Virus record (IMG/VR): IMGVR_UViG_3300023178_000006
Strand: one strand, 5' to 3'
DNA length: 64,000 nt
Source of the DNA: a virus
Taxonomy: Duplodnaviria > Caudoviricetes
The translations under genes and the position numbers were made by a program. How positions within the stretch are numbered: position 1 is the stretch's first letter; each line of letters starts with the position of its first letter. The notes under the pieces are model-generated. The model ran no database searches. It had not been told where the DNA came from and was given only the letters and a program-made list of their open reading frames with translations. Shown here one piece after another: positions 9,669-23,982 of this stretch.

Positions 9669-9671
9669 AAC

Positions 9672-9854
9672 CTAAAGCTCGTTATATTTTACGATTTCCT
9701 GGTCGTCACCAAACCCTTTAGTTTTTAGATAACCATCAGCAATAAGCGAATCAATCACTAATGTGACCATACGCTTTCGGTTTGCTTGTAAACCCCAAAT
9801 ATATCCAATAACAGTAAATACAATCGCTGTAAACCAGAATTGTTCCATTGACAT
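9672..9854 (-). CDS. Small membrane protein
   Basis: N-terminal hydrophobic helix; tight operon spacing. Confidence 0.65.
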   Translation of the reverse strand: MSMEQFWFTAIVFTVIGYIWGLQANRKRMVTLVIDSLIADGYLKTKGFGDDQEIVKYNEL

Positions 9855-9857
9855 ACT

Positions 9858-10097
9858 TTAATCTCCGTGTCGTTGCAAAACTTTTTCGATAATGCGTTGA
9901 GTAGCATCGAGTTTTTCGAATTCTTTATCTTCTTTATCTTCATTAACAGCAATGAATCCTTCTTGAATTGCCATTTCATAAAGCGCATCTCTATTCTCTA
10001 CAAACAAAGTTTCAACAACTTTACGTAAGAATAAATCCTTACTTATTTTGCCTTCGTTTACTTCGGACAATAATTCTTCGACCAAATTATCGAGCAT
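9858..10097 (-). CDS. Hypothetical protein
   Basis: 79 aa, GGAG ribosome-binding site, operon packing. Confidence 0.7.
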   Translation of the reverse strand: MLDNLVEELLSEVNEGKISKDLFLRKVVETLFVENRDALYEMAIQEGFIAVNEDKEDKEFEKLDATQRIIEKVLQRHGD

Positions 10098-10136
10098 AGG
10101 TTTCTCCTTGATTTAGTTATAGTATAATTATAAAAG

Positions 10137-10703
10137 TTACGCACTCGCACCTTGATAACCTTGCCACCAATCAGGAGCTGGTCTACGCCATTCCCATTTA
10201 GCAAAAGGTTTGGATGCATGATAGTAATTCCTATAAGCTTCCACAGCATTTCCCTCAACTTTACATTCAGGAAAATGATTCATCGCCTGAGCGAATTCTG
10301 TTAGTCCTATGTCTGGTATATTCTTTGGTGGTTTAGATAATAGTACACCAAGTTTTAACCAGGTTGCGTGAGCTTTCCCACGTCGATATTCAAATTCGTT
10401 GGCCAACCCACGAAAATGTTCGTAGTGCCATTCATAGTTTGTCTTACTTTCTTTTGTCCAAGTTGTGCATGGGTGAAATTTATGTACAGCCAAATAGTAC
10501 ATGTCATCACGCTCATCACCGAATGAATAATATTGTTGTATTGTTTTACCAGACTTAGAAGGTCGTCTTTCAGGTGTACCATCAAGGAGTCGGTGAACCG
10601 TTGACAACATTTGAGCAGACTCAATAATCATTTTAGGAACGTGTCTGTCACAACACATTTGAGCTGCTGTTATAGGATTCTCATCTAGTACAAATATATT
10701 CAT
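10137..10703 (-). CDS. Pyrimidine-dimer DNA glycosylase (DenV-related) family protein
   Basis: MNIFVLD...CDRHVPKMIIESAQMLST, HPCTTW and AVEAYRNYY motifs. Confidence 0.75.
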   Translation of the reverse strand: MNIFVLDENPITAAQMCCDRHVPKMIIESAQMLSTVHRLLDGTPERRPSKSGKTIQQYYSFGDERDDMYYLAVHKFHPCTTWTKESKTNYEWHYEHFRGLANEFEYRRGKAHATWLKLGVLLSKPPKNIPDIGLTEFAQAMNHFPECKVEGNAVEAYRNYYHASKPFAKWEWRRPAPDWWQGYQGASA

Positions 10704-10918
10704 TCTTCAATATTGGCTAAGTGTTCATGCAATTCGTTAAGTTCAATAGAGAGCTTACGAATCTTTTCTTTATCTTGGTAGTATGCTTGTCCATCAGCAT
10801 ACGGTAAAAACTCATTTAGAGTTTCAATTTTATTTTGTCGCCAAGCAATTGCTTCTTCGATAGATTTTTTCGATACAATTTCATCGGCATCTACAACTGG
10901 TGCTAAAACGCGGTGCAT
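10700..10918 (-). CDS. Hypothetical protein
   Basis: GGAG ribosome-binding site; stop overlaps the next start. Confidence 0.7.
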   Translation of the reverse strand: MHRVLAPVVDADEIVSKKSIEEAIAWRQNKIETLNEFLPYADGQAYYQDKEKIRKLSIELNELHEHLANIEE

Positions 10919-10929
10919 TTGATTTCTCC

Positions 10930-11442
10930 TTATGCAGCTTCACAAAAATATTGTTTCAATTCGTCAGAAGATAGAATAAGTCCATCTTTCATAGTGAAAG
11001 AAGAAGAATAGAACTTCCTCTCGTTGTTTGGTAGCATAGTCCAAGTTTCAAATTTAGACTTAATCTCAGACCTCATATAACCAAACTCTTCGTTTGGAGT
11101 TTTCTTAGTGGCAATAAGACCATACTCAGCTGGAGTTATCATGATGGGAGTTTCCCAACCCTCGAAGTGGTCTTCCATTTTGAAGTCACACTCATCGAAC
11201 AACTCCATAGAAAGGATATACTCCTTCGAAGCATCGTTAGAATAACACACGTGGTCTTCCAGCATTTGCCAGAAATCTTTTGATTGCGCCTGTTCTAGGT
11301 TACAATCAACCACATACCCAGTACCACCCTTGTACTTCCAGTAGGCATCATCACCTGTACCAAGGTTGCCCTCAGCATCCCAAGCGTAGTTTTCCATGTA
11401 TTGTGTTTGAATAACGATTTTCATAATATTTCCTTTTCCCAT
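10930..11442 (-). CDS. Hypothetical early protein
   Basis: MKIVIQTQYMENY...YWKYKGG; directly downstream of a sigma70 promoter. Confidence 0.75.
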   Translation of the reverse strand: MGKGNIMKIVIQTQYMENYAWDAEGNLGTGDDAYWKYKGGTGYVVDCNLEQAQSKDFWQMLEDHVCYSNDASKEYILSMELFDECDFKMEDHFEGWETPIMITPAEYGLIATKKTPNEEFGYMRSEIKSKFETWTMLPNNERKFYSSSFTMKDGLILSSDELKQYFCEAA

Positions 11443-11453
11443 TTACGTTGACC

Positions 11454-11482
11454 ATTATACCACAGGTAATTGTAATTGTCAA
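11454..11482 (-). promoter_or_regulatory. Sigma70-type early promoter
   Basis: TTGACA-N17-TATAAT with TGG extension. Confidence 0.85.
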
Positions 11483-11511
11483 CTATTTTTTTAAACTTTT
11501 TTGTTATAAGG

Positions 11512-11829
11512 TTATTCCCAAACAAAGTTTTCCCAAGGTTCATAACAACCAGCAACTCCAATTGCTGAATTATCACAACCTCTGTTATCATCAAAAATCT
11601 CTAACTTGATTTTGTCAAACATATCTTTTGTCAGTTTGACCATGTTGACATTTTCCATAAAGATACATGATTCATAATCAATAGACATAGGCTTTACGTC
11701 GATATGATTTTCGCCAAACTCTTTAATCATTCCAACATATCTCTTACCATTCAGTAAAAACTGACACTGTTCGAAAGTATCACCAAATGTTTCTTCACCA
11801 AGTTTGGTCCATTTTTCAAATAATTTCAT
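11512..11829 (-). CDS. Hypothetical protein
   Basis: 105 aa ORF coupled to the upstream gene. Confidence 0.7.
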   Translation of the reverse strand: MKLFEKWTKLGEETFGDTFEQCQFLLNGKRYVGMIKEFGENHIDVKPMSIDYESCIFMENVNMVKLTKDMFDKIKLEIFDDNRGCDNSAIGVAGCYEPWENFVWE

Positions 11830-12128
11830 TAAGCAACCTCTCTATAACCAGCAGCTTTACCATAAAAGCCAAGTTTTTCTAATTTTAAAACAATTTCGTT
11901 AAAAGCCGCACCTTCAGAATCTTGCGGATAGATACCCACTGTCATTGGGTCATCAATGAATAATTGACATTGTTCCCAAGTTGGGTTTTGATTGATATAA
12001 TCGTTGATGATTTTCTTTCCTTTTTCAAAAAGATTCTCATCTCTAGTTCTGACCTCAAAGTCAGTGATTTCATAACCGTCCATAGTCAAAGATGGTTCCG
12101 GTTGGTTTCCTAATATTCTTATTTCCAT
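11829..12128 (-). CDS. Hypothetical early protein
   Basis: AAGGAG ribosome-binding site, directly downstream of a promoter. Confidence 0.75.
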   Translation of the reverse strand: MEIRILGNQPEPSLTMDGYEITDFEVRTRDENLFEKGKKIINDYINQNPTWEQCQLFIDDPMTVGIYPQDSEGAAFNEIVLKLEKLGFYGKAAGYREVA

Positions 12129-12158
12129 TTTTACTCCTTTTCCTTAATTTATATGTAT

Positions 12159-12218
12159 ATTATACCAAATCAAAGTGAATTTGTCAACTGTTTTTGTGAA
12201 AAAAGTGCAACTTTTTTT
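12159..12218 (-). promoter_or_regulatory. Sigma70-type promoter with inverted repeat in flipped orientation
   Basis: TTGACA-N17-TATAAT at 12187-12159; AAAAAAGTGCAACTTTTTTT at 12199-12218. Confidence 0.88.
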
Positions 12219-12345
12219 CAATTCCTTCATAGAAGCCTTTTAAAAAATGGAAGGTATTCTATATGGCTTGAGAATTATGTTCTATCTTGATGGTCTGAGG
12301 GCTTCGTATGATGCTATTATATTATCACTATGGTTCTTTAGTTAT

Positions 12346-12353
12346 TATAAATA
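12346..12353 (+). promoter_or_regulatory. T4-type late promoter upstream of the curli/cyclase island
   Basis: Exact TATAAATA 46 nt before ORF 12399. Confidence 0.65.
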
Positions 12354-12398
12354 GAACATGTATAACCCAGTAGGGCTAATACAAATAACAGGGATTAT

Positions 12399-12695
12399 AT
12401 GGAATCAGTACTACAATTAATATCCGAGCTAGGTTTACCTATTGCTGGTGCATTAATTATGGGATTCTTCATCTTCATTATTATTAAACAAATTTTTGAA
12501 GGAATCATTGATAGCATTAATACTTTAAATATGTTCTGTGAAAGCCTAGAGAATAGAGCGAGAACTATGTCTAATGAGGTAGTTAAAATCGATTTGCTCG
12601 TGTCTAGCGCACTTGGATTAAATCCCGACATCGAGCGTATAGCTCGGGCAGAAAATTTTATTGAAGACGGAAAACTCGACGTAAGGAGAGACTAA
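12399..12695 (+). CDS. Small membrane protein (N-terminal TM helix plus coiled coil)
   Basis: LISELGLPIAGALIMGFFIFIII; resembles ORF 12897. Confidence 0.8.
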   Translation: MESVLQLISELGLPIAGALIMGFFIFIIIKQIFEGIIDSINTLNMFCESLENRARTMSNEVVKIDLLVSSALGLNPDIERIARAENFIEDGKLDVRRD

Positions 12696-12910
12696 TGCTA
12701 TTTTGTGGTTATCACTTCAGTTTAAGTGCTGGAGGGGATTTACTGATTTTTGACGAAGGTGACGGAGAGTTAACCTTAGAAAAGTTTGAGTGGAAACCTG
12801 GTGATGAATTCATCGCTTCTCAAACTGAAAATGGTGCTGTAACACTTAGAAGAAAAGCAGACAGAATATATAATCCAAAACAACTGGATTTATTCGATGG
12901 AAGAATTTGA
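12695..12910 (+). CDS. Small hypothetical protein, possibly AbrB/MazE-like
   Basis: LEKFEWKPGDEF...GAVTLRR pattern resembles swapped-hairpin proteins. Confidence 0.45.
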   Translation: MLFCGYHFSLSAGGDLLIFDEGDGELTLEKFEWKPGDEFIASQTENGAVTLRRKADRIYNPKQLDLFDGRI

Positions 12911-13181
12911 TATTATAACACTCGTTAGTGAGTACGGGTTTCCTACAATTATGGTGATTGGGTTAGGATATTTCGTGTACTTTGTTTATAACTTTATACA
13001 AGAGAATATTTTACCAACAATCGATAAAATGCATTTTCAATTAATCAAAGTGATTGATAGAATGAGAATGCTAGACCAGGATTTAATTAGACTGCAAGAG
13101 AAGGTAGACGTAGTTTTAAAATATAAAGAAAATGAGAAACTGAGAGAGGCAGGTGAAAAACATGATAAAAAAGATAATTGA
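12897..13181 (+). CDS. Small membrane protein (N-terminal TM helix plus coiled coil)
   Basis: LVSEYGFPTIMVIGLGYFVYFVY; resembles ORF 12399. Confidence 0.8.
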   Translation: MEEFDIITLVSEYGFPTIMVIGLGYFVYFVYNFIQENILPTIDKMHFQLIKVIDRMRMLDQDLIRLQEKVDVVLKYKENEKLREAGEKHDKKDN

Positions 13182-13668
13182 TGTAATTTTATTATCCGTT
13201 CTAACAATTGGTATTGCAAATGCTGAGCCTATTGTTCACAAATTCAAAAATCCTAGTTTCAGTGGTGTTGGAACAGGTGCTCATTATCTCACTATTGAGA
13301 ATCAAGAACATTCACGTAAGAAAGCAATCAAAGATGCATTAGATGCAGCCGAGAGAGCAGCACAACGAGAAATTGATAATTCAACATTATCAAAATTTAT
13401 ACGAAATTTAGAGAGTAGGATTTACGCTCAGTTAGCAAAACAATTAGTAGACAATATGTTTTCTAACGACGACCCTGTAAGATTTGGGTCCTTTGTTTTA
13501 GAAGGGTCAACAGTTACATATGAAGTTATTACAAACGCTGACGGAACAGAATTTATTAAAATGACAATTGTAGATGAAGATGGTACTACAACTGTTATTG
13601 AAATACCAATTGGTTCAGGTAACTTTGGAAGTGATGGAGATACTGGTGGGGATGGTGACGGTGGCTAA
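13162..13668 (+). CDS. csgF: Curli assembly protein CsgF homologue
   Basis: Signal peptide followed by EPIVHKFKNPSFSG (CsgF-type FxNPxFGG motif) and FIRNLESRIYAQLAKQL; adjacent to csgG. Confidence 0.85.
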   Translation: MIKKIIDVILLSVLTIGIANAEPIVHKFKNPSFSGVGTGAHYLTIENQEHSRKKAIKDALDAAERAAQREIDNSTLSKFIRNLESRIYAQLAKQLVDNMFSNDDPVRFGSFVLEGSTVTYEVITNADGTEFIKMTIVDEDGTTTVIEIPIGSGNFGSDGDTGGDGDGG

Positions 13669-14629
13669 ACTTTTATCCGCTGTATTTTTATCACTATTAT
13701 TAGCAAGTTGTGCACAGATGCCACAATGGTCTGAAGGACCAGCATATTGTGAGTATGGTGAAGGAAGATATGCACAAGGATTTAATACCGATTTTGATAA
13801 TGATGGTATTATAAATGATGATGCTTTAAGTGTTGGAAAACAACTATATACTGGTACTCGTAAGTATATTGAAACAAAACAAATATGTGTTGAGGCACCA
13901 CAAGTTGTAAGGTTACCATCATATATTGATTTGCTTAATTTACCACCTGCTAAAAATAAGCCTGTGGTTGCTGTATATCAATTCCAAGATAAAACAGGAC
14001 AACGTAAAGATTCAGTTACAGGGCAAAGTTTCTCCACTGCGGTAACACAAGGTGGAACAGAATTATTAATTGACGCACTCAAAACCGCAGGTGATGGTAC
14101 ATGGTTTAGAGTAGTAGAAAGACAAGGTATTGATGCTTTAGTAAGAGAACGACAAATTATTCGTTCGGGCAGAGATGAAGCTGCAAAAGCATTAGATGTT
14201 GAACCACAAAAATTAGGACCACTTTTATTTGCAGGTATGATAATCGAAGGTGGTATTATTGGATATGATAGTAATATACAAACTGGTGGACGAGGAGCAA
14301 GAACTCTTGGGATTGGATTTAGTAAATCATACAGACAAGACCAAGTCACTGTTTCTTTAAGAGCAGTATCTGTTCTCACTGGTGAAGTACTATTAAATGT
14401 TCAAACTAAAAAGACAATTTTAAGTTATGGTTCCGGAGGAGATGTATTTAGATTCATAGAGCAAGGAACGCAATTGATAGAATATGAAGACGGTGTAGGA
14501 AATAATGAAAGTGTGACATACGCAGTACGAACAGCAATTGAAGCTGCCGTATTGGAAATGGTTTATCAAGGTAATCGTCGTGGATACTGGGAGATAGACT
14601 GGAATAAAAATGAAGAGGAAAAAGAATGA
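13652..14629 (+). CDS. csgG: Curli secretion channel CsgG homologue (outer-membrane lipoprotein)
   Basis: Lipobox LAS-C; PVVAVYQFQDKTGQ, FSTAVTQGG, WFRVVER, ERQIIRS and EGGIIGYDSN. Confidence 0.93.
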   Translation: MVTVAKLLSAVFLSLLLASCAQMPQWSEGPAYCEYGEGRYAQGFNTDFDNDGIINDDALSVGKQLYTGTRKYIETKQICVEAPQVVRLPSYIDLLNLPPAKNKPVVAVYQFQDKTGQRKDSVTGQSFSTAVTQGGTELLIDALKTAGDGTWFRVVERQGIDALVRERQIIRSGRDEAAKALDVEPQKLGPLLFAGMIIEGGIIGYDSNIQTGGRGARTLGIGFSKSYRQDQVTVSLRAVSVLTGEVLLNVQTKKTILSYGSGGDVFRFIEQGTQLIEYEDGVGNNESVTYAVRTAIEAAVLEMVYQGNRRGYWEIDWNKNEEEKE

Positions 14630-15360
14630 ATAAAAAACTTTTAGGCCTAAGTTTAGCTTTTATTATGATTCCATTTTTAACATTTGCTCAAGCAACTGAT
14701 GATAACGAAATCAACATCGAACAGGATGGTGATACTCTTACTTTGTATATCGACCAATACGGTTACGGTAACAAAATTGGAGCTGATGATTTTAGTTCAT
14801 CTTCAAGTGCTATGGTTATAACTGGTTCATCTGTAAATATGAACATTGACCAAATTGGTAACTCAAACTTATTATTTGGTCCATTAATTGCAGATAGCTA
14901 TGTTCTGAATCTATTATTTACTGGTGACAGTAACTCTTGGGATTGGGATATCGGTTATGTTGGTTCTTCAGATAGTTCTACAATGGATGTAGATATTACT
15001 GGTGATTCTAACACTATGGATTTTGACCAAGGATACAATGCAAGTGCGGAAAGATTGGATTTTGATTTAACAGTTATTGGAGACAGTAACATTTTTGATG
15101 TTGACATTGACGTTGACGACGCAGTTTGGAATTTCGATATTACTGGTGGAAGCAACAATATCAATACATTACAAAAGGACGGAGCGGAGCATGAGATTAA
15201 CTTGACTCACGTAGGTTCTTCTGCTGATATTGATATTAACCAAATCAGTGGTACATGTCCTACAGGTGTTTCTACTTGTAATGGCATAATTACGTTGGAT
15301 GTCGATAGTGAAAATGCAACAATTCAGATTAATCAAAAAGATTCATCTAACGATTCTTAG
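14626..15360 (+). CDS. Curlin-repeat (CsgA/CsgB-like) secreted protein 1
   Basis: Signal peptide and recurring Q/T-x-G-x-x-N repeats (QYGYGN, QIGNSN, TGDSN twice, IGDSN, TGGSN); follows csgG. Confidence 0.7.
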   Translation: MNKKLLGLSLAFIMIPFLTFAQATDDNEINIEQDGDTLTLYIDQYGYGNKIGADDFSSSSSAMVITGSSVNMNIDQIGNSNLLFGPLIADSYVLNLLFTGDSNSWDWDIGYVGSSDSSTMDVDITGDSNTMDFDQGYNASAERLDFDLTVIGDSNIFDVDIDVDDAVWNFDITGGSNNINTLQKDGAEHEINLTHVGSSADIDINQISGTCPTGVSTCNGIITLDVDSENATIQINQKDSSNDS

Positions 15361-16468
15361 CGCATTTCTTTTATTACTACCATTGGGTCTGTCTGCAGCA
15401 GACTCAATCGGTAGTATAATTGAACACAAGGGAAGTGCTTCACTTACTCGTGAACAGGGTGAAGAGCTTGTCGTGAGTGGTTCATTTATACCAGAAGTTG
15501 AAATGAACGACACGGCCGAAACAGAAAACGGTCGAATGCTTATCGAATTCTTAGATAAAGCAGAACTCAGTCTTACAGAAAACACAAAAGTATACATTGA
15601 TAGAGTATACTACGACCCAGACCCAAGCAAATCAAAAATGGCAATGAGAATGGCAATGGGAACTGCAAGGTTCGCATCAGGTCGTTTGGGTATGGTCAAC
15701 AAAAATAATATAGACATACAAACACCCACAGCTACCATATCAGTTCGTGGAACAGATTTTACAACAACCATAGATGAATTAGGAAGGTCACTGGTGATAC
15801 TTTTACCAGACCAATATGGTAATCCATCTGGCACAATAGAAGTTTCAAATTTAGGTGGTACGATTGTCTTAGAAGAGGCTTACGCGGCCACTATGGTATC
15901 TACATTAGATAGTCCACCGACTCCTAAAGTACAAATAACTAATATAACACCAGCGATGATTGATAACATGTTTATCGTTTCTCCTCCACCTGAAGTGAAA
16001 GAAGCAATTGACGAAGAAATGCAAGATGACGCAAATGAAGACCAAGGATTACTTGACATCGACTTTTTAGAATTCAATGAATTAGAAAAAGATTATCTTG
16101 AAGATGACGCATTAGAATTTACTGAACTAGACATTGATTTTCTTGATGTTGATTTCTTAACAGACGTTTTAGATGTCGTTGAAGAATTAATTAAAACAAC
16201 TGCAGCACTTGATGATAGAGCTATCTCAGGTACATCTTTAGGAGCTCAACTTAAAGGTGCAGCATTTGGACTTAATGCTGATTCTCAATATAATATTTAC
16301 GAAGACAGTGGTAAGATTATATTTTATAGAAACGTAGAAGGTACGATACAACTCGCATTTGCGGTAGATGCTTCAGTTAAAATCGATACTGAAGTGGACG
16401 GATATTCTGGTATCATTGACTTGAACCAAGGTCAAGATTCTGTAATAGTAATTAAACAAGGTGGATAA
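15314..16468 (+). CDS. FecR-domain periplasmic protein
   Basis: Signal/TM segment; D.AETENGRMLIEFLD and IQTPTATISVRGTDF; acidic C-terminal region. Confidence 0.85.
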   Translation: MQQFRLIKKIHLTILSAFLLLLPLGLSAADSIGSIIEHKGSASLTREQGEELVVSGSFIPEVEMNDTAETENGRMLIEFLDKAELSLTENTKVYIDRVYYDPDPSKSKMAMRMAMGTARFASGRLGMVNKNNIDIQTPTATISVRGTDFTTTIDELGRSLVILLPDQYGNPSGTIEVSNLGGTIVLEEAYAATMVSTLDSPPTPKVQITNITPAMIDNMFIVSPPPEVKEAIDEEMQDDANEDQGLLDIDFLEFNELEKDYLEDDALEFTELDIDFLDVDFLTDVLDVVEELIKTTAALDDRAISGTSLGAQLKGAAFGLNADSQYNIYEDSGKIIFYRNVEGTIQLAFAVDASVKIDTEVDGYSGIIDLNQGQDSVIVIKQGG

Positions 16469-16476
16469 ATAATAAA

Positions 16477-16701
16477 ATGGAAAAAGAAATACTTAAAATA
16501 ATTGCAAATCGATGTGATTGCTCTTTAGAAGAAGTCACAAACGAAAAACATATCGTAGATGATTTAAACGCGGATTCATTAAGTGTAGTAGAAATCATTA
16601 TGGACTTAGAAGCCGAATTTAATATTCAAATTACTGATGAAGAAGCCGAAGAATTATTAACAGTAAAACAGATTAAAGAATATGTCGAGGTGAATACCTA
16701 A
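16477..16701 (+). CDS. acpP: Acyl carrier protein
   Basis: DDLNADSLSVVEIIMDLEAEFNIQITDEEAE with the phosphopantetheine Ser in DSL. Confidence 0.9.
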   Translation: MEKEILKIIANRCDCSLEEVTNEKHIVDDLNADSLSVVEIIMDLEAEFNIQITDEEAEELLTVKQIKEYVEVNT

Positions 16702-17075
16702 TGGCAAGTATACATTATCTCAAAAGAACAGCTGGTGAAGCGGTCGTAAAGATTTACGAAACAAGTAGCAGCGGCGATACAATAGAATTAGATATTGCTA
16801 ATTTAATTTCAGATGGTCAAACATTTGATGCTAATTCAGCTAACGTCACAATTAAAGAAATCTTTTGGGGTGTAAAACATAACCACTATATTGACGTATC
16901 TCGTAAAGAACGAGGTGGTTCTAATGTTCATGGTCATTATTATTTAGTCAATGCAGGTTCATATGATTACGATGGATTTGTAGATGATGTATATTCAGAA
17001 AGAAACATACAAGTATTACTTGATGGACCTGGTCATGTCATACTTAAATTAAATAAAACAGCTGGTTATAGTTGA
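16701..17075 (+). CDS. Hypothetical protein, possibly virion-associated
   Basis: 124 aa beta-rich ORF, coupled to acpP by TAATG overlap. Confidence 0.65.
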   Translation: MASIHYLKRTAGEAVVKIYETSSSGDTIELDIANLISDGQTFDANSANVTIKEIFWGVKHNHYIDVSRKERGGSNVHGHYYLVNAGSYDYDGFVDDVYSERNIQVLLDGPGHVILKLNKTAGYS

Positions 17076-17812
17076 TGGACGAATTTGATAGAAAATTAGA
17101 TAAATGGTTATTAGGTTTCAGTTGGTGCCTATTGGGAATGTATTTTCTTTTGGCAACTGGTAAAGCTTATGCAGATAATGTTATAACCATTGAACAAACT
17201 GGTGATAATTTAAATTTAGAGATTCAGCAATATGGTGCTGATAACGAAATTAAAATGTTAGACCAATATTCGTATATTAACGCGTCATCGTTAGATTTAT
17301 TAGTTGTTCAATATAATACTGCAGGTAATGATAACACAATAGTATTTGATGAAATCAGTGGAACAGGTAACGAATTTAAATTGGGTCAAGGTGTTGCTTT
17401 TGATAACACCACACAAGGTTGGAACTATGATGGTGCCGAAGGCGGTGGTCATTATATGGAAATAGATTTATATGGTAATGATAACTTTGTTGAATGGCAT
17501 CAAACAAATCAAAGTGATGCAACTGACGGACATGATTTTAACTTACATGTTGCTGGGTCTGATAATTGGATAGATGGAAGACAACAATCTTCAGGCGCAA
17601 AAGAAGCAAACATTACACTTTATAATTCAGACAACGTTTTAACATTTAGACAGAAAGGAGCTAACGCAACTCACTCAGCAAATATTACCTTAGATGGTAT
17701 TTACGGAACGACAGCAACTATTAGACAAAATAGCACAACCAATCAAACATACAATTTATCAGTGGATTGTTATACAGTTGGTGGTTGCTCAGTGAATGTG
17801 CTACAAGAATAA
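17072..17812 (+). CDS. Curlin-repeat secreted protein 2
   Basis: Mature N-terminus DNVITIEQTGDNLNLEIQQYG matches protein 1 (DNEINIEQDGDTLTLYIDQYG); G-x-x-N repeats; C-terminal Cys pair. Confidence 0.7.
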   Translation: MMDEFDRKLDKWLLGFSWCLLGMYFLLATGKAYADNVITIEQTGDNLNLEIQQYGADNEIKMLDQYSYINASSLDLLVVQYNTAGNDNTIVFDEISGTGNEFKLGQGVAFDNTTQGWNYDGAEGGGHYMEIDLYGNDNFVEWHQTNQSDATDGHDFNLHVAGSDNWIDGRQQSSGAKEANITLYNSDNVLTFRQKGANATHSANITLDGIYGTTATIRQNSTTNQTYNLSVDCYTVGGCSVNVLQE

Positions 17813-18126
17813 TGCAAGAGTTAGATGATTTTGGAAATCCAGTAGGAACATTATATCCGGGTGATGAAGGTTGCCCTCAAGATATGATTTGTTTAACCGA
17901 AGAAGGATTTAACCAAATGCTTTCTGAAGCTGATATGTATTATAATACAGAAACATTCCAAGTTGAGCCGATGGGCGATGCTGAAGCAATTATAGATTTC
18001 ACAACGGATTTATTGTTCTTGGATATTTGGACTATTTTAAATATGGCAGTACCATTAACAATTTTCGCAGTATATGGTTTAACATTATATGCAGCAGTAA
18101 AGTATATCCAAAAGAAGTTTAGTTAA
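17812..18126 (+). CDS. Membrane protein
   Basis: Start by TAATG overlap at 17812; C-terminal TM helix. Confidence 0.65.
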   Translation: MQELDDFGNPVGTLYPGDEGCPQDMICLTEEGFNQMLSEADMYYNTETFQVEPMGDAEAIIDFTTDLLFLDIWTILNMAVPLTIFAVYGLTLYAAVKYIQKKFS

Positions 18127-18127
18127 A

Positions 18128-20170
18128 ATGAAATGGTTAACAAAGTGGTGGACGGTATTATTCACCATTGCTGGTTTTTCAGCGTTACAAATATCAAACC
18201 CAAATTTTATTCAAAGTATAGAGTATTCTTATTATGACTATCTCCATTCAAAAAAGGAAAAAATTGCGTCGGAGGATATCGTCCTCGTCAACATTGACGA
18301 AAGAGCTATCAGAGCACAAGGCCAATATCCTTGGCCTAGGGGGAACATTGCTGATTTCATTAATGCTGGTCCTGCTGATTCTCTTTATGTCTTAAACATA
18401 ATATATTCTGAAGAAGATAGATTTGGTGAAGATAACGAACTTGCAGAAGCACTGGCCAATAGAGCTGTTGTATTATCATCAGCACCCACACAACAAACAT
18501 CTGGTGGAATAGGAACCTTTGTAGGTGTTGCCACTTTTGGAGAACAAGATGAAAATTGGTTGTATGAATTTCCAGGCCTTTTGTACCCTATTGAATCTCT
18601 TTCTAATTGGGTTTTTGGTGTTGGGGCCACCGTTGCTATTCCTGATGAACCAACAGGTGTCGTGCGAAGAGCACCCCTCGTTGTTAAAGCAGCCGGGAAT
18701 CCTTATCCATCTCTCGCCCTTGACACACTACGAGTGTACACCGGAGAACCAAGCTATCAAATGAAAGTAGGCACCAATGGTGTCGAATGGATTCGCATGG
18801 GTCGACAAGACCCAATCACTACAAACTCCTTCGCAGAAGTCCCTATAGCTTTCTGGAATGAATTCGAACAAGTCAGTATATTAGACCCATTACCCGAAGG
18901 TAAAGTTTTAATCTTTGGTATTACAGCTGAAGGATATGCTAATCCAGTTGCAACCCCATTGGGTGCAGTGTATCCCCACGAAGTTCAAGGTCATTTAATT
19001 CAGACCGTTCTTTCAGGAGTCGAAATACAGATTCCCGACTGGAAGCCAATAGCCGAGCTCGGTCTTCTGGTGTTATTGAGTCTAGGTATCCTTGGAGCGG
19101 TCTATATCTTGCCCATAACTCTTGGGGTGATAAAGAGTCTAATTCTGATTTGCGGTTCTTATGGAGTATCATTGTATCTCTGGAATGATGCTTTAATCTT
19201 TGTTGACGCGACCTTAAGTTCATTTGCTTCCTTAGTAGTTTTTGCCCAATCAAGTTTTAACAAGTATTTTATCACATTTTTAGAGAAACGTCAACTAGCA
19301 AAACAGTTCGCTGGTTATGCTTCTCCTACAGTCGTTCGTTTACTCCAAGAGAATCCTTCTCTCGTTAAAGAGGGAATGAAAAAAGAAATTAGTATTTGTT
19401 TTTCTGATTTAAGAGGATTTACACCACTGGGTGAAAGCTTCGGAGATGACGTACAAGGATTAACGAAGTTAATGAATGGGTATATGGATTCAATCACTGA
19501 GCCTGTCCTTAACGCTGATGGAATGATTATAAAGTATATAGGCGATGCTTCGATGCACATACACAATGCGCCTATTGACGACCCTGAACATCCTAAAACT
19601 GCAGTACAAACTGGAATCAATATGCTAAGGAGTGTAGAAAAATTCAATGAAAAGATTACAGCAGAAGGTCGACCACCAATTGGCATGGGGGCTGGGATTA
19701 ACACTGGTCTTGGTTATCTTGGTGAGATGGGTTCTACAGAACGACACAGTTATGATGTACTTGGTGACAGCGTTTCAACTGCTGCACGAATTGAGTCAAA
19801 ATGTAAAGAATATGGTTGCTTATTATTAGTTGGCGAAGAAACAGTTAAACGATGTTCTCCTAATGATTTCTTTTTCCTTAAAGTAGACGACCTTGCAGTA
19901 AAAGGAAAAACAGTAGGAATTGGAATATACACAGTATTAGACCTTGATAAGAATAAATATATTAAACCGGCCGAGATGCATGAAGCAATGCATCAGAATT
20001 ACCGTAAACAAAACTTCGATAAAGCTATTAAAATATGTAACGACCTTATGGAATGTTTTGAAGGTCAGATGGAAGGTTACTACAAGATGTGGATTGAGCG
20101 TTGCGAATATATGAAAACGCAAGATTTACCGAAGGATTGGAACGGTGTCTTTATTGCTACGACTAAATAA
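18128..20170 (+). CDS. CHASE2-domain class III adenylate cyclase
   Basis: CHASE2 motifs DIVLVNIDE, GQYPWPR and YPSLAL; three TM helices; cyclase motifs FSDLRGFT, IKYIGDA, GINTG and DVLGDSVSTAARIES. Confidence 0.93.
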   Translation: MKWLTKWWTVLFTIAGFSALQISNPNFIQSIEYSYYDYLHSKKEKIASEDIVLVNIDERAIRAQGQYPWPRGNIADFINAGPADSLYVLNIIYSEEDRFGEDNELAEALANRAVVLSSAPTQQTSGGIGTFVGVATFGEQDENWLYEFPGLLYPIESLSNWVFGVGATVAIPDEPTGVVRRAPLVVKAAGNPYPSLALDTLRVYTGEPSYQMKVGTNGVEWIRMGRQDPITTNSFAEVPIAFWNEFEQVSILDPLPEGKVLIFGITAEGYANPVATPLGAVYPHEVQGHLIQTVLSGVEIQIPDWKPIAELGLLVLLSLGILGAVYILPITLGVIKSLILICGSYGVSLYLWNDALIFVDATLSSFASLVVFAQSSFNKYFITFLEKRQLAKQFAGYASPTVVRLLQENPSLVKEGMKKEISICFSDLRGFTPLGESFGDDVQGLTKLMNGYMDSITEPVLNADGMIIKYIGDASMHIHNAPIDDPEHPKTAVQTGINMLRSVEKFNEKITAEGRPPIGMGAGINTGLGYLGEMGSTERHSYDVLGDSVSTAARIESKCKEYGCLLLVGEETVKRCSPNDFFFLKVDDLAVKGKTVGIGIYTVLDLDKNKYIKPAEMHEAMHQNYRKQNFDKAIKICNDLMECFEGQMEGYYKMWIERCEYMKTQDLPKDWNGVFIATTK

Positions 20171-20816
20171 GTTATTAATTGGAGTTCTTTTATTAGCACT
20201 TCCAGCTGAAGCTTACATACCAAAACAAAAATTTTATCCAACTTACGTTGACCCTGCAATGATTGCAAAATTCAAAGCAGGTCATACCGCACCTTATGAT
20301 GACGCATATGTTCGTCGAGTTGTTGTAGGTAAAGCTCGAATAATGGAAAACGGTGCTATTATTACTTTACCACACGGACCAGAACTTGTTCCTCCTCTAA
20401 AAGATTTAATGCATCACCCAAAGTTTAAGGAAAAGAAACCAACCCCACAATTCTCAGAAAATAGTATAAATTTAAATCTTGACATGTCCTCTCCAGAATT
20501 TTATTGGAATGAAAGAGAAAAAAGATGGATTGATTTATTCTTTTGGACCACACAGATACTCGATGTATATTCAACTTATAAAGGTATGAAGTATTCTTGT
20601 TTAACTGAAGCGAATCCTTTATTACCTGAAGTTCCAGAAGTACATGAAATGGTCGGTTTAAAGTTAGGTGTTATTGGTGGAATAAAATTTGTTTTAGATG
20701 GTGATGATACCTTTTGGTATGATTGGAAATTAGGTGCAGGCGTTTCAACTGGACTTGTTGTAGCAAATAATTTTAGATTAATTAATAAAGCCGAGAGACA
20801 GTGCGAAAAAAGATAA
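20145..20816 (+). CDS. Hypothetical protein with C-terminal membrane domain (EANP motif)
   Basis: LDVYSTYKGM...EANPLL followed by hydrophobic helices; start uncertain. Confidence 0.6.
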   Translation: MSLLLRLNKLLIGVLLLALPAEAYIPKQKFYPTYVDPAMIAKFKAGHTAPYDDAYVRRVVVGKARIMENGAIITLPHGPELVPPLKDLMHHPKFKEKKPTPQFSENSINLNLDMSSPEFYWNEREKRWIDLFFWTTQILDVYSTYKGMKYSCLTEANPLLPEVPEVHEMVGLKLGVIGGIKFVLDGDDTFWYDWKLGAGVSTGLVVANNFRLINKAERQCEKR

Positions 20817-20836
20817 GGGAGCCTTTCGACTCCCTT
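20815..20836. terminator. Hairpin between convergent transcription units
   Basis: AAGGGAG-CCTTTCGA-CTCCCTT. Confidence 0.65.
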
Positions 20837-20860
20837 GTGTTCTGTGATTGCAGATAAAGT

Positions 20861-20977
20861 TTAGACAATGGTACTTATGCTATAAACCATCATTCCTAAA
20901 AAGATTGTGGTTAATAAGCACTCAACACAAAGCTCCCCATTTACACGCAACCACACTTTTTGTGCCATTGCTTTCAT
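20861..20977 (-). CDS. 38-aa single-TM peptide
   Basis: MKAMAQKVWLRVNGELCVECLLTTIFLGMMVYSISTIV with AAGGGA ribosome-binding site. Confidence 0.6.
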   Translation of the reverse strand: MKAMAQKVWLRVNGELCVECLLTTIFLGMMVYSISTIV

Positions 20978-20987
20978 AACAGTTCCC

Positions 20988-21116
20988 TTATTTGTTGTGT
21001 TTTTGTTTTTGAACTTCAGAGAGGTAGTTAGCAACTCTGATATCCCACATTGGAGCATACTTTAAAAAAAGGTATGATATAAACAGACCGAAAGGTATAA
21101 TAAAAAATAGTTCCAT
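20988..21116 (-). CDS. 42-aa single-TM peptide (not in ORF track)
   Basis: MELFFIIPFGLFISYLFLKYAPMWDIRVANYLSEVQKQKHNK; TAATG coupling to the upstream ORF. Confidence 0.55.
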   Translation of the reverse strand: MELFFIIPFGLFISYLFLKYAPMWDIRVANYLSEVQKQKHNK

Positions 21117-21205
21117 TATCTACCCGGATGCCATGGTTGTACCCAATATTTAAAGAACGTTCTAGTCCAACCACGGGTGAAGAACCTTTTTAACGCTTTA
21201 AACAT
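21116..21205 (-). CDS. 29-aa basic aromatic peptide (not in ORF track)
   Basis: MFKALKRFFTRGWTRTFFKYWVQPWHPGR; GGAG upstream; overlaps both neighbours. Confidence 0.5.
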   Translation of the reverse strand: MFKALKRFFTRGWTRTFFKYWVQPWHPGR

Positions 21206-21287
21206 TGGGATTTACTCCCATTAATGAAATGCAAAAAATACCAACGAGAACAAACAGTTCAACTCGTTCTTGCATCTTTTCTTTCAT
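21198..21287 (-). CDS. 29-aa single-TM peptide (not in ORF track)
   Basis: MKEKMQERVELFVLVGIFCISLMGVNPNV; AAGGAG ribosome-binding site and TAATG coupling. Confidence 0.6.
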   Translation of the reverse strand: MKEKMQERVELFVLVGIFCISLMGVNPNV

Positions 21288-21541
21288 TATTCTCCTTTAG
21301 GACAATTACTTCTAAAGATATACTGAGATGCTATTCTAGCTTCCTTTTTATCTAAATAAGAATCCTTGTTCTTATCGGCTGCTTTAAATAATCCATTCTT
21401 AACGGTACATCCCGCAGCTTTGAGTTCGGCTTTGCTGATTAGTTTGTCACCATCCAAATCGAATCGTTCCATCCTCCAGTCAGCATACGCTGGAGCAGCA
21501 ATAAAGCATGCTGCTATCGCTATCATAATTTTCTTATTCAT
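21287..21541 (-). CDS. Secreted EF-hand-pair protein
   Basis: Signal peptide (AYA-D); DLDGDKLISKAEL and DKNKDSYLDKKE loops. Confidence 0.8.
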   Translation of the reverse strand: MNKKIMIAIAACFIAAPAYADWRMERFDLDGDKLISKAELKAAGCTVKNGLFKAADKNKDSYLDKKEARIASQYIFRSNCPKGE

Positions 21542-21562
21542 TATATTCCAAGGTTGTGGATG

Positions 21563-21745
21563 TTATACTATGAAGTATTGAATCAGCGCCATACTACCTA
21601 GCATAAAACCAAGTACTAATACTTGGATAATCGATGCATAAGCAACTTGTTTCATTGGGTGGATTTCAACTAATTTTTCTACGACACTCTCACCAGGTGA
21701 AAGATTCGCGATTTTTAGTGCTGTTTCTTTTTTCAATTCGAACAT
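21563..21745 (-). CDS. 60-aa protein with C-terminal TM helix
   Basis: Hydrophobic C-terminus; first gene of the micropeptide chain. Confidence 0.65.
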   Translation of the reverse strand: MFELKKETALKIANLSPGESVVEKLVEIHPMKQVAYASIIQVLVLGFMLGSMALIQYFIV

Positions 21746-21857
21746 CCGTTGTTTCTAGTACAACTTCCCCATCGTTGTACGATACTATATATACATAGAA
21801 TTTATAATATATTATAAAAATTTAAAATAATTGCAATTATTTACAGAATTGTTACAA

Positions 21858-22139
21858 TTACTCGAACAAATCAGTTTGCAATGGCTCTGGAAACTGAGTT
21901 GAATTTCGATATTCCTCATTTTCCATTTGCACTTCATAATATTTTTTCAATTCATCATATGCATTTCTGATTTGAACTGGCATTACGCCACCGCTTTGAA
22001 TTACCCACTCAATTTCGTTTGCTAACTTTCTTGAGAGTTGTAGTTCAACAGCAGTTCCTCTACTATGAGATTCTGTTGAATCAGAATCATAAAGCACTTC
22101 ATCTTCTCCGCCAAACGGGTTTGGTGCTACTTTTTTCAT
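21858..22139 (-). CDS. Hypothetical protein
   Basis: 93 aa, directly after guaC. Confidence 0.7.
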   Translation of the reverse strand: MKKVAPNPFGGEDEVLYDSDSTESHSRGTAVELQLSRKLANEIEWVIQSGGVMPVQIRNAYDELKKYYEVQMENEEYRNSTQFPEPLQTDLFE

Positions 22140-22140
22140 A

Positions 22141-23298
22141 CTATACTCCTATTGTAGATGATTCATAAACTGAGTTATGTGTTTGAGTACAACGAACAAA
22201 CGTTGCACACTTATTTAAATGTTTAAGCTTTGCGGCCCCTGCATATGTACATGCACTACGTAAGCCACCTAAAATATCATTAATAGTATTTTGTACAGCA
22301 CCTCTATAAGGAACTCTTACTGTACGACCTTCACTCGCTCTATACTCTTTTAATCCACCAAAGTGTTTATCATTAGCAGATTTAGAACTCATACCATAAA
22401 ACTCTACAAATTGTTTCTCAATACGTTTACCAATCCCCGCGGACGTAGCGGGCGCCTGCACGTTTGAAATAATAGATTCAGTAATTACATTACCACCACC
22501 TTCATCATGTCCTGCGAGCATTCCACCCAACATTACAAAATCTGCTCCTGCGGCAAATGCTTTACATACATCACCAGGATTAGTACACCCACCGTCAGCA
22601 ATGATATGTCCTCCAAGACCATGCGCCGCGTCAGCACACTCGATGACCGCAGAGAGTTGAGGGTAACCCACCCCAGTCTGAATACGAGTAGTACATACAC
22701 TCCCAGGACCAATGCCGACTTTAACGATATCTGCTCCACTTAAAATTAACTCCTCTGTCATTTCTTTTGTTACTACGTTACCAGCAATAATGACGATGTT
22801 TGGTGCCTTTTCTCTGAGGGTTGCGATGAAATCTCTAAATCTACTACTATATCCATTTGCAACATCTACACAGACATACTTAATCGACTCTCTATTGTAT
22901 GTGTAAACCTTAATGAATTTAGTTAAATCTTCATCACTAATGCCCATGCTATATGCTACAAATTCAGTACGAAGAATTTGGTCGTCATTATAGAATGCAA
23001 TCAATTCATCTTCACTATATGTTTTCACTAGAGTGGTAAACAATCCTTGTTTCGAAAGAGTGTCAGCCATTTCCATCGTTCCTACTCCGTCCATATTGGC
23101 AGCCATAATAGGAATACCATAATAGTGCGGAGTTTCTCCAGACGCGCGGATAGATTCTATCGACATTTCTGGTGGTTCATAATTACGAAAAGTAAATCCA
23201 CGATATAAATCTACTTCTTTACGACTTCCAAGTGTTGACCGTTTTGGTTGAATTAAAACATCCTTATAGTCAAGCTTTATTTCGTTATCAATTCTCAA
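22141..23298 (-). CDS. guaC: GMP reductase
   Basis: [47 protein letters not shown] and YRASEGR. Confidence 0.93.
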
Positions 23299-23462
23299 CG
23301 AGACTCTCCTTAATCTCTCATAAATTCTTCAAGCAGTTCATCACCGTAGTTTTGAACAAACTCAGTTCCTTTGGCAATATACTTAATAGCATAATACCAA
23401 ACTGTCCACAATACAACAGGCACAATTACTAGTGCCACCTTTCCCCAGTACTTATAGTTCAT

Positions 23463-23973: not shown

Positions 23974-23982
23974 GAGAACCTC

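Follow-up and report, generated by a model that had tools for sequence, protein, structure and literature searches.

A divergent member of the pelagiphage curli secretion, FecR and adenylate cyclase module in a probable late operon of a T4-like myophage

Introduction

Gene modules that combine type VIII (curli) secretion (T8SS) with a FecR protein and an adenylate cyclase have been described from pelagiphages and methylophages, including HTVC008M, Melnitz and the HTVC023P-type podophages (PMC9599517; PMC7029224; PMC9004378). The set as published in full (Wittmers 2022, PMC9599517; see also PMC7029224, PMC9004378) comprises small membrane proteins, CsgF, CsgG, a CsgA/B-like protein, FecR, a second CsgA/B-like protein and the cyclase; its CsgA/B-like proteins, FecR and adenylate cyclase belong to the standard make-up of the pelagiphage T8SS module (PMC9599517). 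In bacteria, the Sinorhizobium meliloti cyclase CyaD1 adjoins the FecR-domain gene smc02177 (PMC5498481), and the CHASE2 cyclases of this species respond to an outside protein signal via the outer-membrane protein NsrA (PMC13001267). A Burkholderia operon termed "BiofilmReg" encodes a LysM-FecR protein together with a CHASE2 histidine kinase (PMC5192318). In the present work, we have analyzed a stretch of 64,000 nucleotides of viral DNA (IMG/VR record IMGVR_UViG_3300023178_000006; hereafter the window), in which an island of genes probably constitutes a divergent member of the pelagiphage-type T8SS, FecR and adenylate cyclase module, predicted to be carried as a late operon by a T4-like myophage.

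Results and Discussion

Layout of the island and its late-promoter signals

Positions 12346-20816 of the window hold a tightly packed run of 13 ORFs on the + strand, spanning 12399 to 20816, in which neighboring ORFs overlap by no more than 47 nt or are separated by no more than 8 nt and which is flanked on both sides by − strand genes. The run is preceded by an exact match to the T4-type late promoter motif TATAAATA at 12346..12353 (+), 53 nt 5' of the first gene, mp1. The original prediction of a contiguous and closely packed run, opposite in orientation to its flanks and headed by an exact late-promoter motif, is thus confirmed. On the − strand, a promoter with a perfect sigma-70 consensus (12187-12159) diverges from the late motif, and a GC-rich hairpin at 20815..20836, with a T-run on its − strand side only, closes the run at the converging − strand genes.

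The weight of the late-promoter motif rests on its placement and not on its frequency in the window, where TATAAATA is found five times versus 6.9 expected and is not enriched. Four of the five copies precede + strand ORF starts by 34-53 nt, including copies 34-42 nt 5' of three head-module ORFs (viz. the post-portal ORF, the prohead protease and the major capsid protein). The present analysis adds that the motif is conserved across relatives: in 49 of 67 related loci, the 120 nt that precede mp1 contain NATAAATA (about 0.02 expected), and the late motif is strongly enriched in relatives 5' of mp1, CsgF and the cyclase. A further motif, GATAAATA, overlaps the FecR stop codon at 16464..16471 (+) and is a possible internal late promoter; in loci L003 and L088-L092, the same motif is located 13 nt 5' of cur2. 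Contigs of four metatranscriptome runs map onto the island, with DNA carry-over as a possible source. Taken from its motif and layout, the island reads as a late operon.

Conservation of the module and its accessory genes

Eight genes form the conserved core of the module: mp1, mp2, CsgF, CsgG, cur1, cur2, the FecR-domain protein and the CHASE2 class III cyclase. The genes and their order are the same as in the published phage modules, and in HTVC008M and Melnitz the genes in this identical order are already annotated. In IMG/VR, 429 contigs encode a relative of the island cyclase, and in the 48 loci that extend at least 6.5 kb 5' of the cyclase, on which collinearity was counted, CsgF, CsgG, cur1 and FecR are found without exception (45 collinear, the block being inverted in the other 3), while the mp1/mp2 pair lies within 2.3 kb on either side in the compared loci. 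Hence, the earlier suggestion that csgF/csgG are extended here by amyloid subunits and by a FecR/cyclase signalling pair has to be withdrawn, since this is the published standard composition (PMC9599517), and the cluster is one already known from abundant marine phages, of which the present copy is a divergent new member.

The phage backbone is divergent as well, its major capsid protein being at most 62-65% identical to that of any isolate, and the carrier is a T4-like myophage of marine or estuarine origin. Unlike the published module, the island is not located downstream of the ssDNA-binding protein gene but between divergent − strand blocks. In comparison with the published modules, its clade adds an N-terminal extension of CsgG, tm104 and orf223, together with orf71, an acyl carrier protein (ACP) and orf124. 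The last three are inserted passengers and not core parts. The small cytoplasmic protein orf71 (12695..12910, +), a clade-specific accessory, is weakly AbrB/MazE-like (MazE_antitoxin 1e-4, sub-cut-off) and is found in 5 of 83 loci; the cytoplasmic protein orf124 (16701..17075, +), with no Pfam or PHROG match, is found in none of the 83 and, in this comparison, is confined to the window. The ACP (16477..16701, +) was correctly named (Pfam PP-binding 1.6e-10; phrog_5934; DSL serine present), but its inclusion as a component of the system is not borne out, because only 2 of the 83 related loci encode it and a single one (L086) has it inside the module. The other two additions are clade-specific envelope proteins, viz. 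tm104 (17812..18126, +), of 104 aa with a C-terminal membrane anchor and no family match (5/83 loci), and orf223 (20145..20816, +), an exported or membrane protein with a weak DUF5658 match only (11/83 loci).

Outer-membrane channel, curlin-repeat proteins and small membrane proteins

The CsgF homologue (13153..13668, +; start codon GTG 13153 or ATG 13162) carries a signal peptide and matches the full Pfam CsgF model (1.5e-16) and phrog_35372 (4.9e-39). Its N-terminal motif reads F-K-N-P-S-F-S-G, and its family profile gives a weak match to the N-terminal part of E. coli CsgF (PDB 6l7a_J, E 0.048). The adjoining gene (13652..14629, +) encodes the lipoprotein CsgG, the predicted outer-membrane channel (Pfam 4.5e-56), with a lipobox LLASC read from the sequence and followed by a clade-specific extension of roughly 65 aa. 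These matches bear out both identities as originally proposed. The phage CsgG aligns with E. coli CsgG (4uv3, 3.5e-50), including the constriction loop, at about 45% identity over the whole fold; however, of the E. coli constriction triad Tyr/Asn/Phe, the Phe alone is retained. Although the CsgF family is shared with bacterial curli systems (E. coli CsgBAC/DEFG; alphaproteobacterial CsgFG with curlins), CsgE, CsgC and CsgD are absent from the island, as they are from the published phage modules, and the phage module embeds a FecR protein and a cyclase, neither of which is present in the 8 alphaproteobacterial CsgG loci examined.

Two genes, cur1 (14626..15360, +) and cur2 (17072..17812, +), encode predicted secreted curlin-repeat proteins, cur1 being a CsgA/B-like putative beta-solenoid. 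In the window both score below the Pfam Curlin_rpt cut-off of 20.7 bits (18.8 bits for cur1 and 15.7 bits for cur2), and the curlin assignment is therefore based on family-level evidence, viz. orthologue matches, paralogy and fold, by which the original prediction of two curlin-repeat proteins is upheld even though their own scores fall short. Curlin_rpt matches are found in 27 of 37 cur1 orthologues (best 4.4e-7) and in 10 of 23 cur2 orthologues (best 3.4e-10), and comparison of the two family profiles by hhalign (99.8%, E 1.2e-29) identifies cur2 as a paralogue of cur1. The AF2 model of cur1 (pLDDT 80, all-beta) indicates a beta-solenoid, closest to a solved CsgA, that of Pontibacter (8c50; VIA Z 17.0, 20% identity, rmsd 8.9), a comparison in which CsgA does not outscore beta-solenoids of unrelated families and for which Foldseek found no significant CsgA match. 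Repeats of the Q-x-G-x-x-N type and the solenoid fold are common to bacterial curli subunits and the phage proteins, but the latter, at about 245 aa, are roughly twice as long as the CsgA chain of E. coli to which the fold search gave a match.

The first gene, mp1 (12399..12695, +), encodes a membrane protein of 98 aa (phrog_18771, 2.2e-23) that has a single membrane pass and a coiled-coil tail and comes from a family found in viruses only, and is module-linked in 70 of 83 loci. Its 94-aa paralogue mp2 (12897..13181, +; phrog_18771, 2.5e-26) always accompanies mp1 and among isolated phages is present in HTVC008M and Melnitz only. The published label of "histidine kinase" ("HK") for these small proteins is without Pfam support, no histidine-kinase domain being found in 46 mp1 family members.

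The constant linkage of two small single-pass membrane paralogues to the module fits a different proposal, in which the module is solely a lysis-timing pore (Buchholz 2022, PMC9004378). Here a gated CsgG/CsgF channel or pinholin-like pore would depolarise or permeabilise the envelope, the curlin-like proteins would be gates or periplasmic parts and not exported as fibres, mp1 and mp2 would be holin/antiholin-like, and cAMP would set the timing. The late-promoter motif on the module, the absence of CsgE, the altered constriction residues of CsgG and the lack of clumping in the infected cultures of that study are also in its favor. We nevertheless regard it as unlikely. Two signal-peptide curlin-repeat paralogues are retained in lineages whose cyclases are only about 50% identical, which is most simply explained if they are secretion substrates; CsgF keeps its N-terminal channel-binding motif region; no lysis enzyme adjoins the island in the window; and neither mp1 nor mp2 has a holin-family match.

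FecR-domain protein and CHASE2 cyclase

The FecR-domain periplasmic protein (15314..16468, +; phrog_37870 2.8e-68), which has more than 7,700 metagenomic homologues, consists of a signal peptide, a FecR/PupR-type beta domain, an acidic linker and a small C-terminal beta domain. Its AF2 model (pLDDT 74) matches the C-terminal signalling domain of PupR (6ovk; Foldseek 1.9e-4, VIA Z 15.3). Its identity (Pfam FecR 2.8e-9) stands as originally given, as does that of the CHASE2 cyclase (Pfam CHASE2 1.4e-28; class III Guanylate_cyc 2.6e-16). An uptake channel under iron regulation has been suggested (PMC7029224; PMC9599517), with the CsgG pore importing cofactors or siderophores and FecR acting as a ferric-citrate-type regulator, and the presence of a FecR domain is in its favor. 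However, the phage protein opens directly with its signal peptide and lacks the cytoplasmic anti-sigma part, and an iron-regulator role is therefore unlikely. Moreover, no island ORF has a Pfam match to a sigma-factor or TonB-dependent-receptor family, bacterial FecR relatives adjoin CHASE2 cyclases rather than iron loci, and CsgF and the two curlin paralogues are left unexplained, so that we consider this suggestion very improbable. A structural comparison was also made with LapA/MpIBP-type RTX adhesins, whose N-terminal retention domain (PDB 5ix9; bioRxiv 10.1101/198937) anchors them in their outer-membrane pore. Over residues 29-126, the phage model can be aligned with 5ix9 (74 of its 76 residues; Z 6.3, rmsd 2.5; Foldseek E 3.7e-3) at a fold score too low to be trusted by itself, but the phage protein is just 384 aa long and without repeats or an RTX signal.

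The predicted membrane CHASE2 class III adenylate cyclase (18128..20170, +) is 52% identical to that of Melnitz and 33% to that of HTVC008M. Residues D427, D473, K469, D543 and R554 are all present, and the enzyme carries ATP-type specificity residues. Bacterial relatives align with residues 1-680 at identities of about 30%, and the S. meliloti enzymes (CyaD1, CyaD2 and CyaK) share the CHASE2 plus class III architecture and the conserved C-terminal helical tail. The viral cyclases have a fixed Asp/Ser active-site pair where bacterial enzymes of the S. meliloti type have Ser/Thr and Asn. Ser550 replaces the transition-state Asn found in 80 of 80 bacterial relatives, and the activity or product of the cyclase is therefore uncertain. 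The S. meliloti output passes to the CRP-like regulator Clr, whereas a search of five related phage records for such a cNMP-binding protein gave none.

Origin of the module

The FecR protein and CHASE2 cyclase are encoded by an older pair of alphaproteobacterial genes. Of the 80 closest bacterial cyclases, 29 have a FecR-domain ORF within 10 kb and 10 have one as their immediate neighbor, and the bacterial FecR domain often heads giant adhesin-like proteins with cadherin/Ig repeats and an RTX-type C-terminus. The Burkholderia "BiofilmReg" operon, which is biofilm-linked, likewise places a periplasmic FecR-domain protein beside a CHASE2 membrane sensor, but it signals through a histidine kinase and response regulator in place of a cyclase, and it has no secretion channel or curlin. 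The phage module has the appearance of two fused alphaproteobacterial units, viz. a CsgFG/curlin unit and the FecR-domain/CHASE2-cyclase pair. That the closest cellular relatives are alphaproteobacterial (also PMC9599517) could suggest host DNA misassembled onto a phage contig, but this is refuted for practical purposes by the same block amid T4-like genes in the genomes of two isolated phages and in dozens of viral contigs independent of one another, the G+C content shared with the flanks, the phage late-promoter motif in front of the island, and twelve DNA runs from different studies that each hold at least half of the sampled words of the window.

Proposed function

In the late-operon module that we consider probable, the phage RNA polymerase would read the genes from TATAAATA late in infection, and ten products would go to the envelope, the three cytoplasmic passengers excepted. 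CsgG and CsgF would form an outer-membrane channel, and the two curlin-like proteins would cross the inner membrane by Sec and leave through this channel as a surface fibre, with export independent of CsgE as in alphaproteobacterial curli systems. The FecR-like protein would be the partner of the periplasmic CHASE2 domain. The roles named in the original prediction (aggregation, surface remodelling, sensing of superinfection, and lysis timing) are hypotheses that had already been published. The state of the envelope or surface would be conveyed as cytoplasmic cAMP to a host receptor, and the module may serve in aggregation, in the exclusion of other phages, or in lysis timing.

Genomic Context and Identity of the Island

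The window belongs to a T4-like myophage, whose portal, prohead protease, scaffold and major capsid genes are located at 1080-6972 on the + strand and whose - strand carries ribonucleotide reductase and numerous small ORFs. Its major capsid protein shows just 62-65% identity to that of any isolated phage, and its nearest capsid relatives are the phiM12-like rhizobiophages, Melnitz, HTVC008M and the cyanomyophages. The window also encodes a tRNA-Glu (anticodon TTC; 7290-7364, - strand) and an 84-aa protein with EF-hand calcium-binding motifs (21287-21541, - strand; Pfam EF-hand_1, 5.7e-8), the gene for which adjoins an IMP dehydrogenase/GMP reductase-family gene at 22141-23298. No lysis enzyme was found by Pfam among the small ORFs that flank the island.

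The island comprises 13 + strand ORFs (12399-20816) flanked by two - strand blocks. In order, these encode the small membrane protein mp1, orf71, the mp1 paralogue mp2, CsgF, CsgG, the curlin-repeat protein cur1, FecR, an acyl carrier protein-type product (ACP), orf124, the second curlin-repeat protein cur2, the envelope protein tm104, a CHASE2 cyclase and the envelope protein orf223. The junctions between successive ORFs range from a 47-nt overlap to an 8-nt gap, and the G+C content of the island is the same as that of its flanks; misassembly with host DNA was considered as its origin and rejected. By inspection, a signal peptide, a lipobox or membrane helices are present in 10 of the 13 products, and the three products lacking such features (viz. 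orf71, ACP, and orf124) are the very genes that are rarest in related phages. When the island was compared by megablast with 50,697 phage records, no match emerged at the nucleotide level, its relatives being detectable at the protein level only.

The presence of this island, and most of the gene annotation in the original prediction, were borne out by Pfam and PHROGs. The module that it forms belongs to a known and very common type of phage module, of which it is a new and divergent representative. The same gene order as in the window has been annotated in Pelagibacter phage HTVC008M and Methylophilales phage Melnitz, and the constituents of the pelagiphage T8SS-FecR-AC module, viz. CsgF, CsgG, a CsgA/B-like protein and FecR in this order and the second CsgA/B-like protein and cyclase that usually follow, are all present and phage-encoded, with the small genes mp1 and mp2 located where the published module has one or two "histidine kinase" genes. 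A "curli operon" of pelagimyophages was described earlier, for which "sibling capture" was proposed (Zaragoza-Solas, 2020; PMC7029224), and the full set of "HK", CsgF, CsgG, CsgA/B, FecR, second CsgA/B and adenylate cyclase has been reported from both podophage and myophage pelagiphages (Wittmers, 2022; PMC9599517). Hence the amyloid subunits and the FecR/cyclase pair, which had been taken as additions of this locus to csgF/csgG, are part of the standard published make-up (PMC9599517). The viral curli set has alphaproteobacterial affinity, an ocean-wide distribution and metatranscriptome expression, and the viral curli proteins and affiliated FecR were detected at 65 of the 65 ocean stations surveyed (PMC9599517). 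Metagenomic homologues of the phage FecR protein number more than 7,700. Published descriptions of the module make no mention of CHASE2, promoters or anti-sigma domains.

FecR, HK and AC are not found in bacterial curli operons (PMC9599517). In our tblastn searches, CsgG, CsgF and curlins were found near none of the 80 closest bacterial cyclases, and neither FecR nor a cyclase was found near alphaproteobacterial CsgG genes (0 of 8 loci, from 401 genomes sampled). These results suggest that the joining of a curli unit to a FecR/cyclase unit is, within the loci sampled, a feature of phages.

The Predicted Secretion Channel and Its Curlin-Repeat Proteins

The assignment of CsgG (PF03783) is strong (189.9 bits against a cut-off of 20.8; Pfam E 4.5e-56), and the protein also matches E. 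coli CsgG (4uv3) at 3.5e-50. Its lipobox, read from the sequence as L-A-S-C, occupies residues 17-20 of the ORF that begins at 13652, and in the clade of the window it is followed by an extension of about 65 aa. The constriction loop of E. coli CsgG is marked by a Tyr/Asn/Phe triad; in the 4uv3 alignment the phage protein keeps the Phe, has Ser at both the Tyr and the Asn places, and contains a one-residue insertion. CsgF (PF10614) scores 61.2 bits against a cut-off of 25.8 over model positions 4-132 of 132 (E 1.5e-16). An N-terminal peptide of the N-P-x-F-G-G type in CsgF inserts into the CsgG barrel, and the phage CsgF has F-K-N-P-S-F-S-G after its signal peptide, with F28, P31, F33, G35 and G37 invariant across 35 orthologues. 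The CsgF family profile matches E. coli CsgF weakly (E 0.048), and a phmmer search of CsgF against the PDB gave no match. Pfam revealed no member of the CsgE, CsgC or CsgD families among the island ORFs.

The two curlin-repeat proteins of the window score 18.8 and 15.7 bits against Curlin_rpt (PF07012), below the cut-off of 20.7. At the level of families, Curlin_rpt matches (E <= 0.01) are present in 27 of 37 orthologues of cur1 and in 10 of 23 orthologues of cur2, and comparison of the two families by hhalign (99.8%, E 1.2e-29) shows that they are paralogues. The cur1 alignment contains invariant Q, G and N columns in a repeated register, and its AF2 model (pLDDT 80) is an all-beta solenoid; a Sec signal is combined with a beta-solenoid fold bearing stacked Q/N-G repeats, as in a curlin subunit. 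On the basis of these family-level matches, paralogy, repeats and fold, cur1 and cur2 are therefore called curlin-repeat beta-solenoids, and they are candidate fibre subunits. In an exhaustive structural comparison, the Pontibacter CsgA (8c50) ranks second against cur1 (Z 17.0, rmsd 8.9) and has the top identity in the list (20%), and E. coli CsgA (8enq) gives Z 10.7; CsgA comes near the top with this exhaustive aligner only, and unrelated solenoids score like CsgA. Foldseek searches of the cur1 model against the PDB and the Swiss-Prot models gave nothing significant, nor did the cur1 family profile give a meaningful match in the PDB (best E 0.21).

Cellular Ancestry of the FecR/Cyclase Arm

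The FecR domain of the phage protein scores 37.7 bits against a cut-off of 24 (Pfam E 2.8e-9), and the fold of its N-terminal domain is that of the PupR/FecR signalling domain (PupR 6ovk; Foldseek 1.9e-4, Z 15.3). The protein opens with a signal peptide and lacks the cytoplasmic anti-sigma part. Its N-terminal domain is followed by a linker that is acidic and poorly ordered and then by a small beta domain at the C-terminus; an HMM of this last domain matched nothing in the bacterial loci examined. No ECF sigma factor or TonB-dependent transducer family is represented among the island ORFs, and the identification of this FecR as an iron regulator was rejected.

The closest bacterial relatives of the cyclase are alphaproteobacterial proteins of about 30% identity over the full length. 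Of the 80 closest bacterial cyclases, 29 have a FecR-domain ORF within 10 kb and 10 have one as a direct neighbour; control loci totalling 153 kb contain none. In Bradyrhizobium, Methylobacterium and a Pseudomonadota MAG, a protein of 1,200-1,700 aa is encoded directly upstream of the CHASE2 cyclase (L013:4790-9910, L041:6257-9937, and L020:6027-9707 in the bacterial loci compared). These giant proteins have a FecR domain at the N-terminus, cadherin/Ig repeats, and matches of the RTX/serralysin type at the C-terminus, an adhesin-like architecture. In the phage FecR model, residues 29-126 align weakly to the RTX-adhesin retention domain of PDB 5ix9 (74 of 76 residues, Z 6.3), a domain that was used in modelling how LapA is held in an outer-membrane pore (bioRxiv 10.1101/198937). 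Precedents for FecR/CHASE2 pairing are provided by CyaD1 and smc02177 of S. meliloti, where the outer-membrane protein NsrA is the entry point of the signal, and by the LysM-FecR/CHASE2 kinase operon of Burkholderia. Our comparisons show that the FecR/cyclase arm of the module descends from a cellular FecR-CHASE2 pair and not from iron regulation. A complex prediction for the CHASE2 periplasmic domain and the FecR protein scored 0.00, which speaks neither for nor against binding, and we give coupling of FecR to the CHASE2 domain roughly even odds.

In the cyclase of the window (18128-20170, + strand), both the CHASE2 domain (100.6 bits, 1.4e-28) and the cyclase domain (60.2 bits, 2.6e-16) score above their cut-offs. 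Class III cyclases depend upon two metal-binding Asp residues, a purine-specifying Lys plus Asp/Thr, and a transition-state Arg and Asn. Across 82 viral sequences, the metal-binding D427 and D473 as well as K469 and R554 are invariant, and D543 is nearly so. Because a Lys and Asp pair in these enzymes predicts ATP as the substrate, ATP is also the predicted substrate of the window's cyclase. The place of the transition-state Asn is occupied by Ser550 in this protein. Asp543 and Ser550 are found together in 80 of the 82 viral cyclases; the other two, which are HTVC008M-like, share Ser/Thr543 and Asn550 with all 80 bacterial relatives. The retention of Ser550 among sequences with an identity of only about 50% speaks against decay. 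No cNMP-binding domain or protein was found in five related phage records, and any receiver of cAMP is for this reason probably a host protein.

Core and Inserted Genes of the Module

A relative of the window's cyclase is encoded by 429 IMG/VR contigs. CsgF, CsgG, cur1 and FecR are present in all 48 loci that have at least 6.5 kb upstream of the cyclase, and the block that they form is collinear in 45 of these loci and inverted as a whole in 3. The mp1/mp2 pair is always near the module: in 23 loci it lies upstream on the same strand, and in 45 it follows shortly after the cyclase, with a median separation of 727 nt. Among isolated phages the pair is confined to the two that carry the module. 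A Pfam kinase domain is present in none of 46 members of this family (lengths 92-126 aa), and the "histidine kinase" identity of mp1 and mp2, which Pfam does not support, was set aside.

The ACP is a genuine family member (PP-binding, 41.5 bits against a cut-off of 20.8, 1.6e-10), with its attachment serine read from the sequence in D33-S34-L35. It was rejected as a part of the system, since it occurs in 2 of 83 loci and just one of these copies is inside the module. Similarly uncommon are orf124 (0 of 83 loci), orf71 (5 of 83), tm104 (5 of 83) and orf223 (11 of 83). The window's copy shows that the core of the module consists of eight envelope-targeted genes under a putative late promoter and that ACP and similar genes are inserts.

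In one related phage (L003), tm104 and the cyclase are separated by an inserted uroporphyrinogen decarboxylase gene, with a gene for porphobilinogen deaminase nearby, these tetrapyrrole-pathway auxiliary genes being located at L003:12364-13299 and L003:2723-3565. This indicates that the module tolerates inserted auxiliary genes, of which ACP is one. Another viral locus (L094:5187-8855) retains cur2, the cyclase and mp1/mp2, with CsgF, CsgG, cur1 and FecR absent in the 5.2 kb upstream, and may represent a reduced form of the module.

Promoters and Transcription

The T4-type late promoter motif TATAAATA, which is the established late promoter of T4, is located at 12346-12353 (+ strand) in the intergenic spacer 5' of the first island gene; it is common to the structural genes and is kept in relatives. 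The motif is not over-represented window-wide (5 observed vs 6.9 expected). Four of the 5 copies lie 34-53 nt 5' of + strand ORF starts, three of these ORFs being those of the head module, and by a rough estimate such placement has a chance of less than one in ten thousand. In related viral loci, the 120 nt before mp1 contain NATAAATA in 49 of 67 cases; for csgF the count is 19 of 53, and for the cyclase it is 29 of 76. The chance expectation is about 0.02 per 120 nt, and the motif is nearly absent before the internal genes of the module. We infer that TATAAATA would be used as a late promoter in the window's phage.

At 12187-12159, the - strand carries a sigma-70 promoter that matches the consensus perfectly (TTGACA, 17 nt, TG-extended -10 TATAAT) and diverges from the late motif. 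It likely serves the leftward genes as an early promoter; this arrangement fits an early leftward unit that diverges from a late rightward one. A further motif, GATAAATA, at 16464-16471 overlaps the FecR stop codon and is also found 13 nt before cur2 in six relatives. In the window, the ACP gene is inserted immediately behind this motif.

Four metatranscriptome runs, of salt marsh and seawater, contain contigs that map to the island, several without mismatch, in agreement with the published expression data; such contigs are blind to transcript ends, strand and timing, and DNA carry-over is possible. Separately, the stretch 7626-8617, beside the tRNA-Glu gene, is matched by exact contigs of 992 and 669 nt in two salt-marsh metatranscriptome runs at a depth of 168-194, compared with 0-8 across the rest of 8000-24000. 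It contains no ORF of at least 110 aa, and its G+C is 0.42-0.43. The stretch could represent either a non-coding RNA of high abundance or a small early gene that is highly expressed, a candidate for the latter being a 71-aa ORF at 8213-8428 (- strand). An Rfam search of 7300-8700 found the tRNA alone.

Functional Interpretation and Significance

The best-supported reading, and the one that we prefer, is that the module encodes a late-expressed envelope machine, in which a CsgG/CsgF channel would act together with two exported curlin-like subunits and a cAMP-writing FecR-CHASE2 sensing arm. Fibre export, a component of this reading, has in our judgement a roughly even chance of occurring. The main rival holds that the module forms only a pore that times lysis, and a pinholin- or secretin-like pore of this kind has been proposed (Buchholz, 2022; PMC9004378); it is favored by the pair of small membrane proteins that is always linked to the module and by the Melnitz cultures, which grew without clumping (PMC9004378).

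An extension of the envelope-machine reading, which we consider unlikely, is that the FecR-like protein would report a surface structure from the periplasmic side, and that the alphaproteobacterial adhesin/cyclase pairs would be cAMP-writing contact or surface sensors which phages re-plugged onto a curli channel and fibre. The infected cell could then measure fibre assembly, cell-cell contact or the attack of other phages and adjust late infection (e.g. lysis timing) via cAMP, and Asp543/Ser550 would mark changed catalysis. An iron-uptake reading of the module is rejected.

As a discovery, the window's module is not new. It belongs to one of the commonest multi-gene auxiliary cassettes of ocean phages, and each independent lineage helps in distinguishing core from passenger genes. 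The division into core and inserts and the cellular FecR-CHASE2 ancestry narrow the range of worthwhile experiments on a module that would give hosts without any curli genes a new envelope machine.
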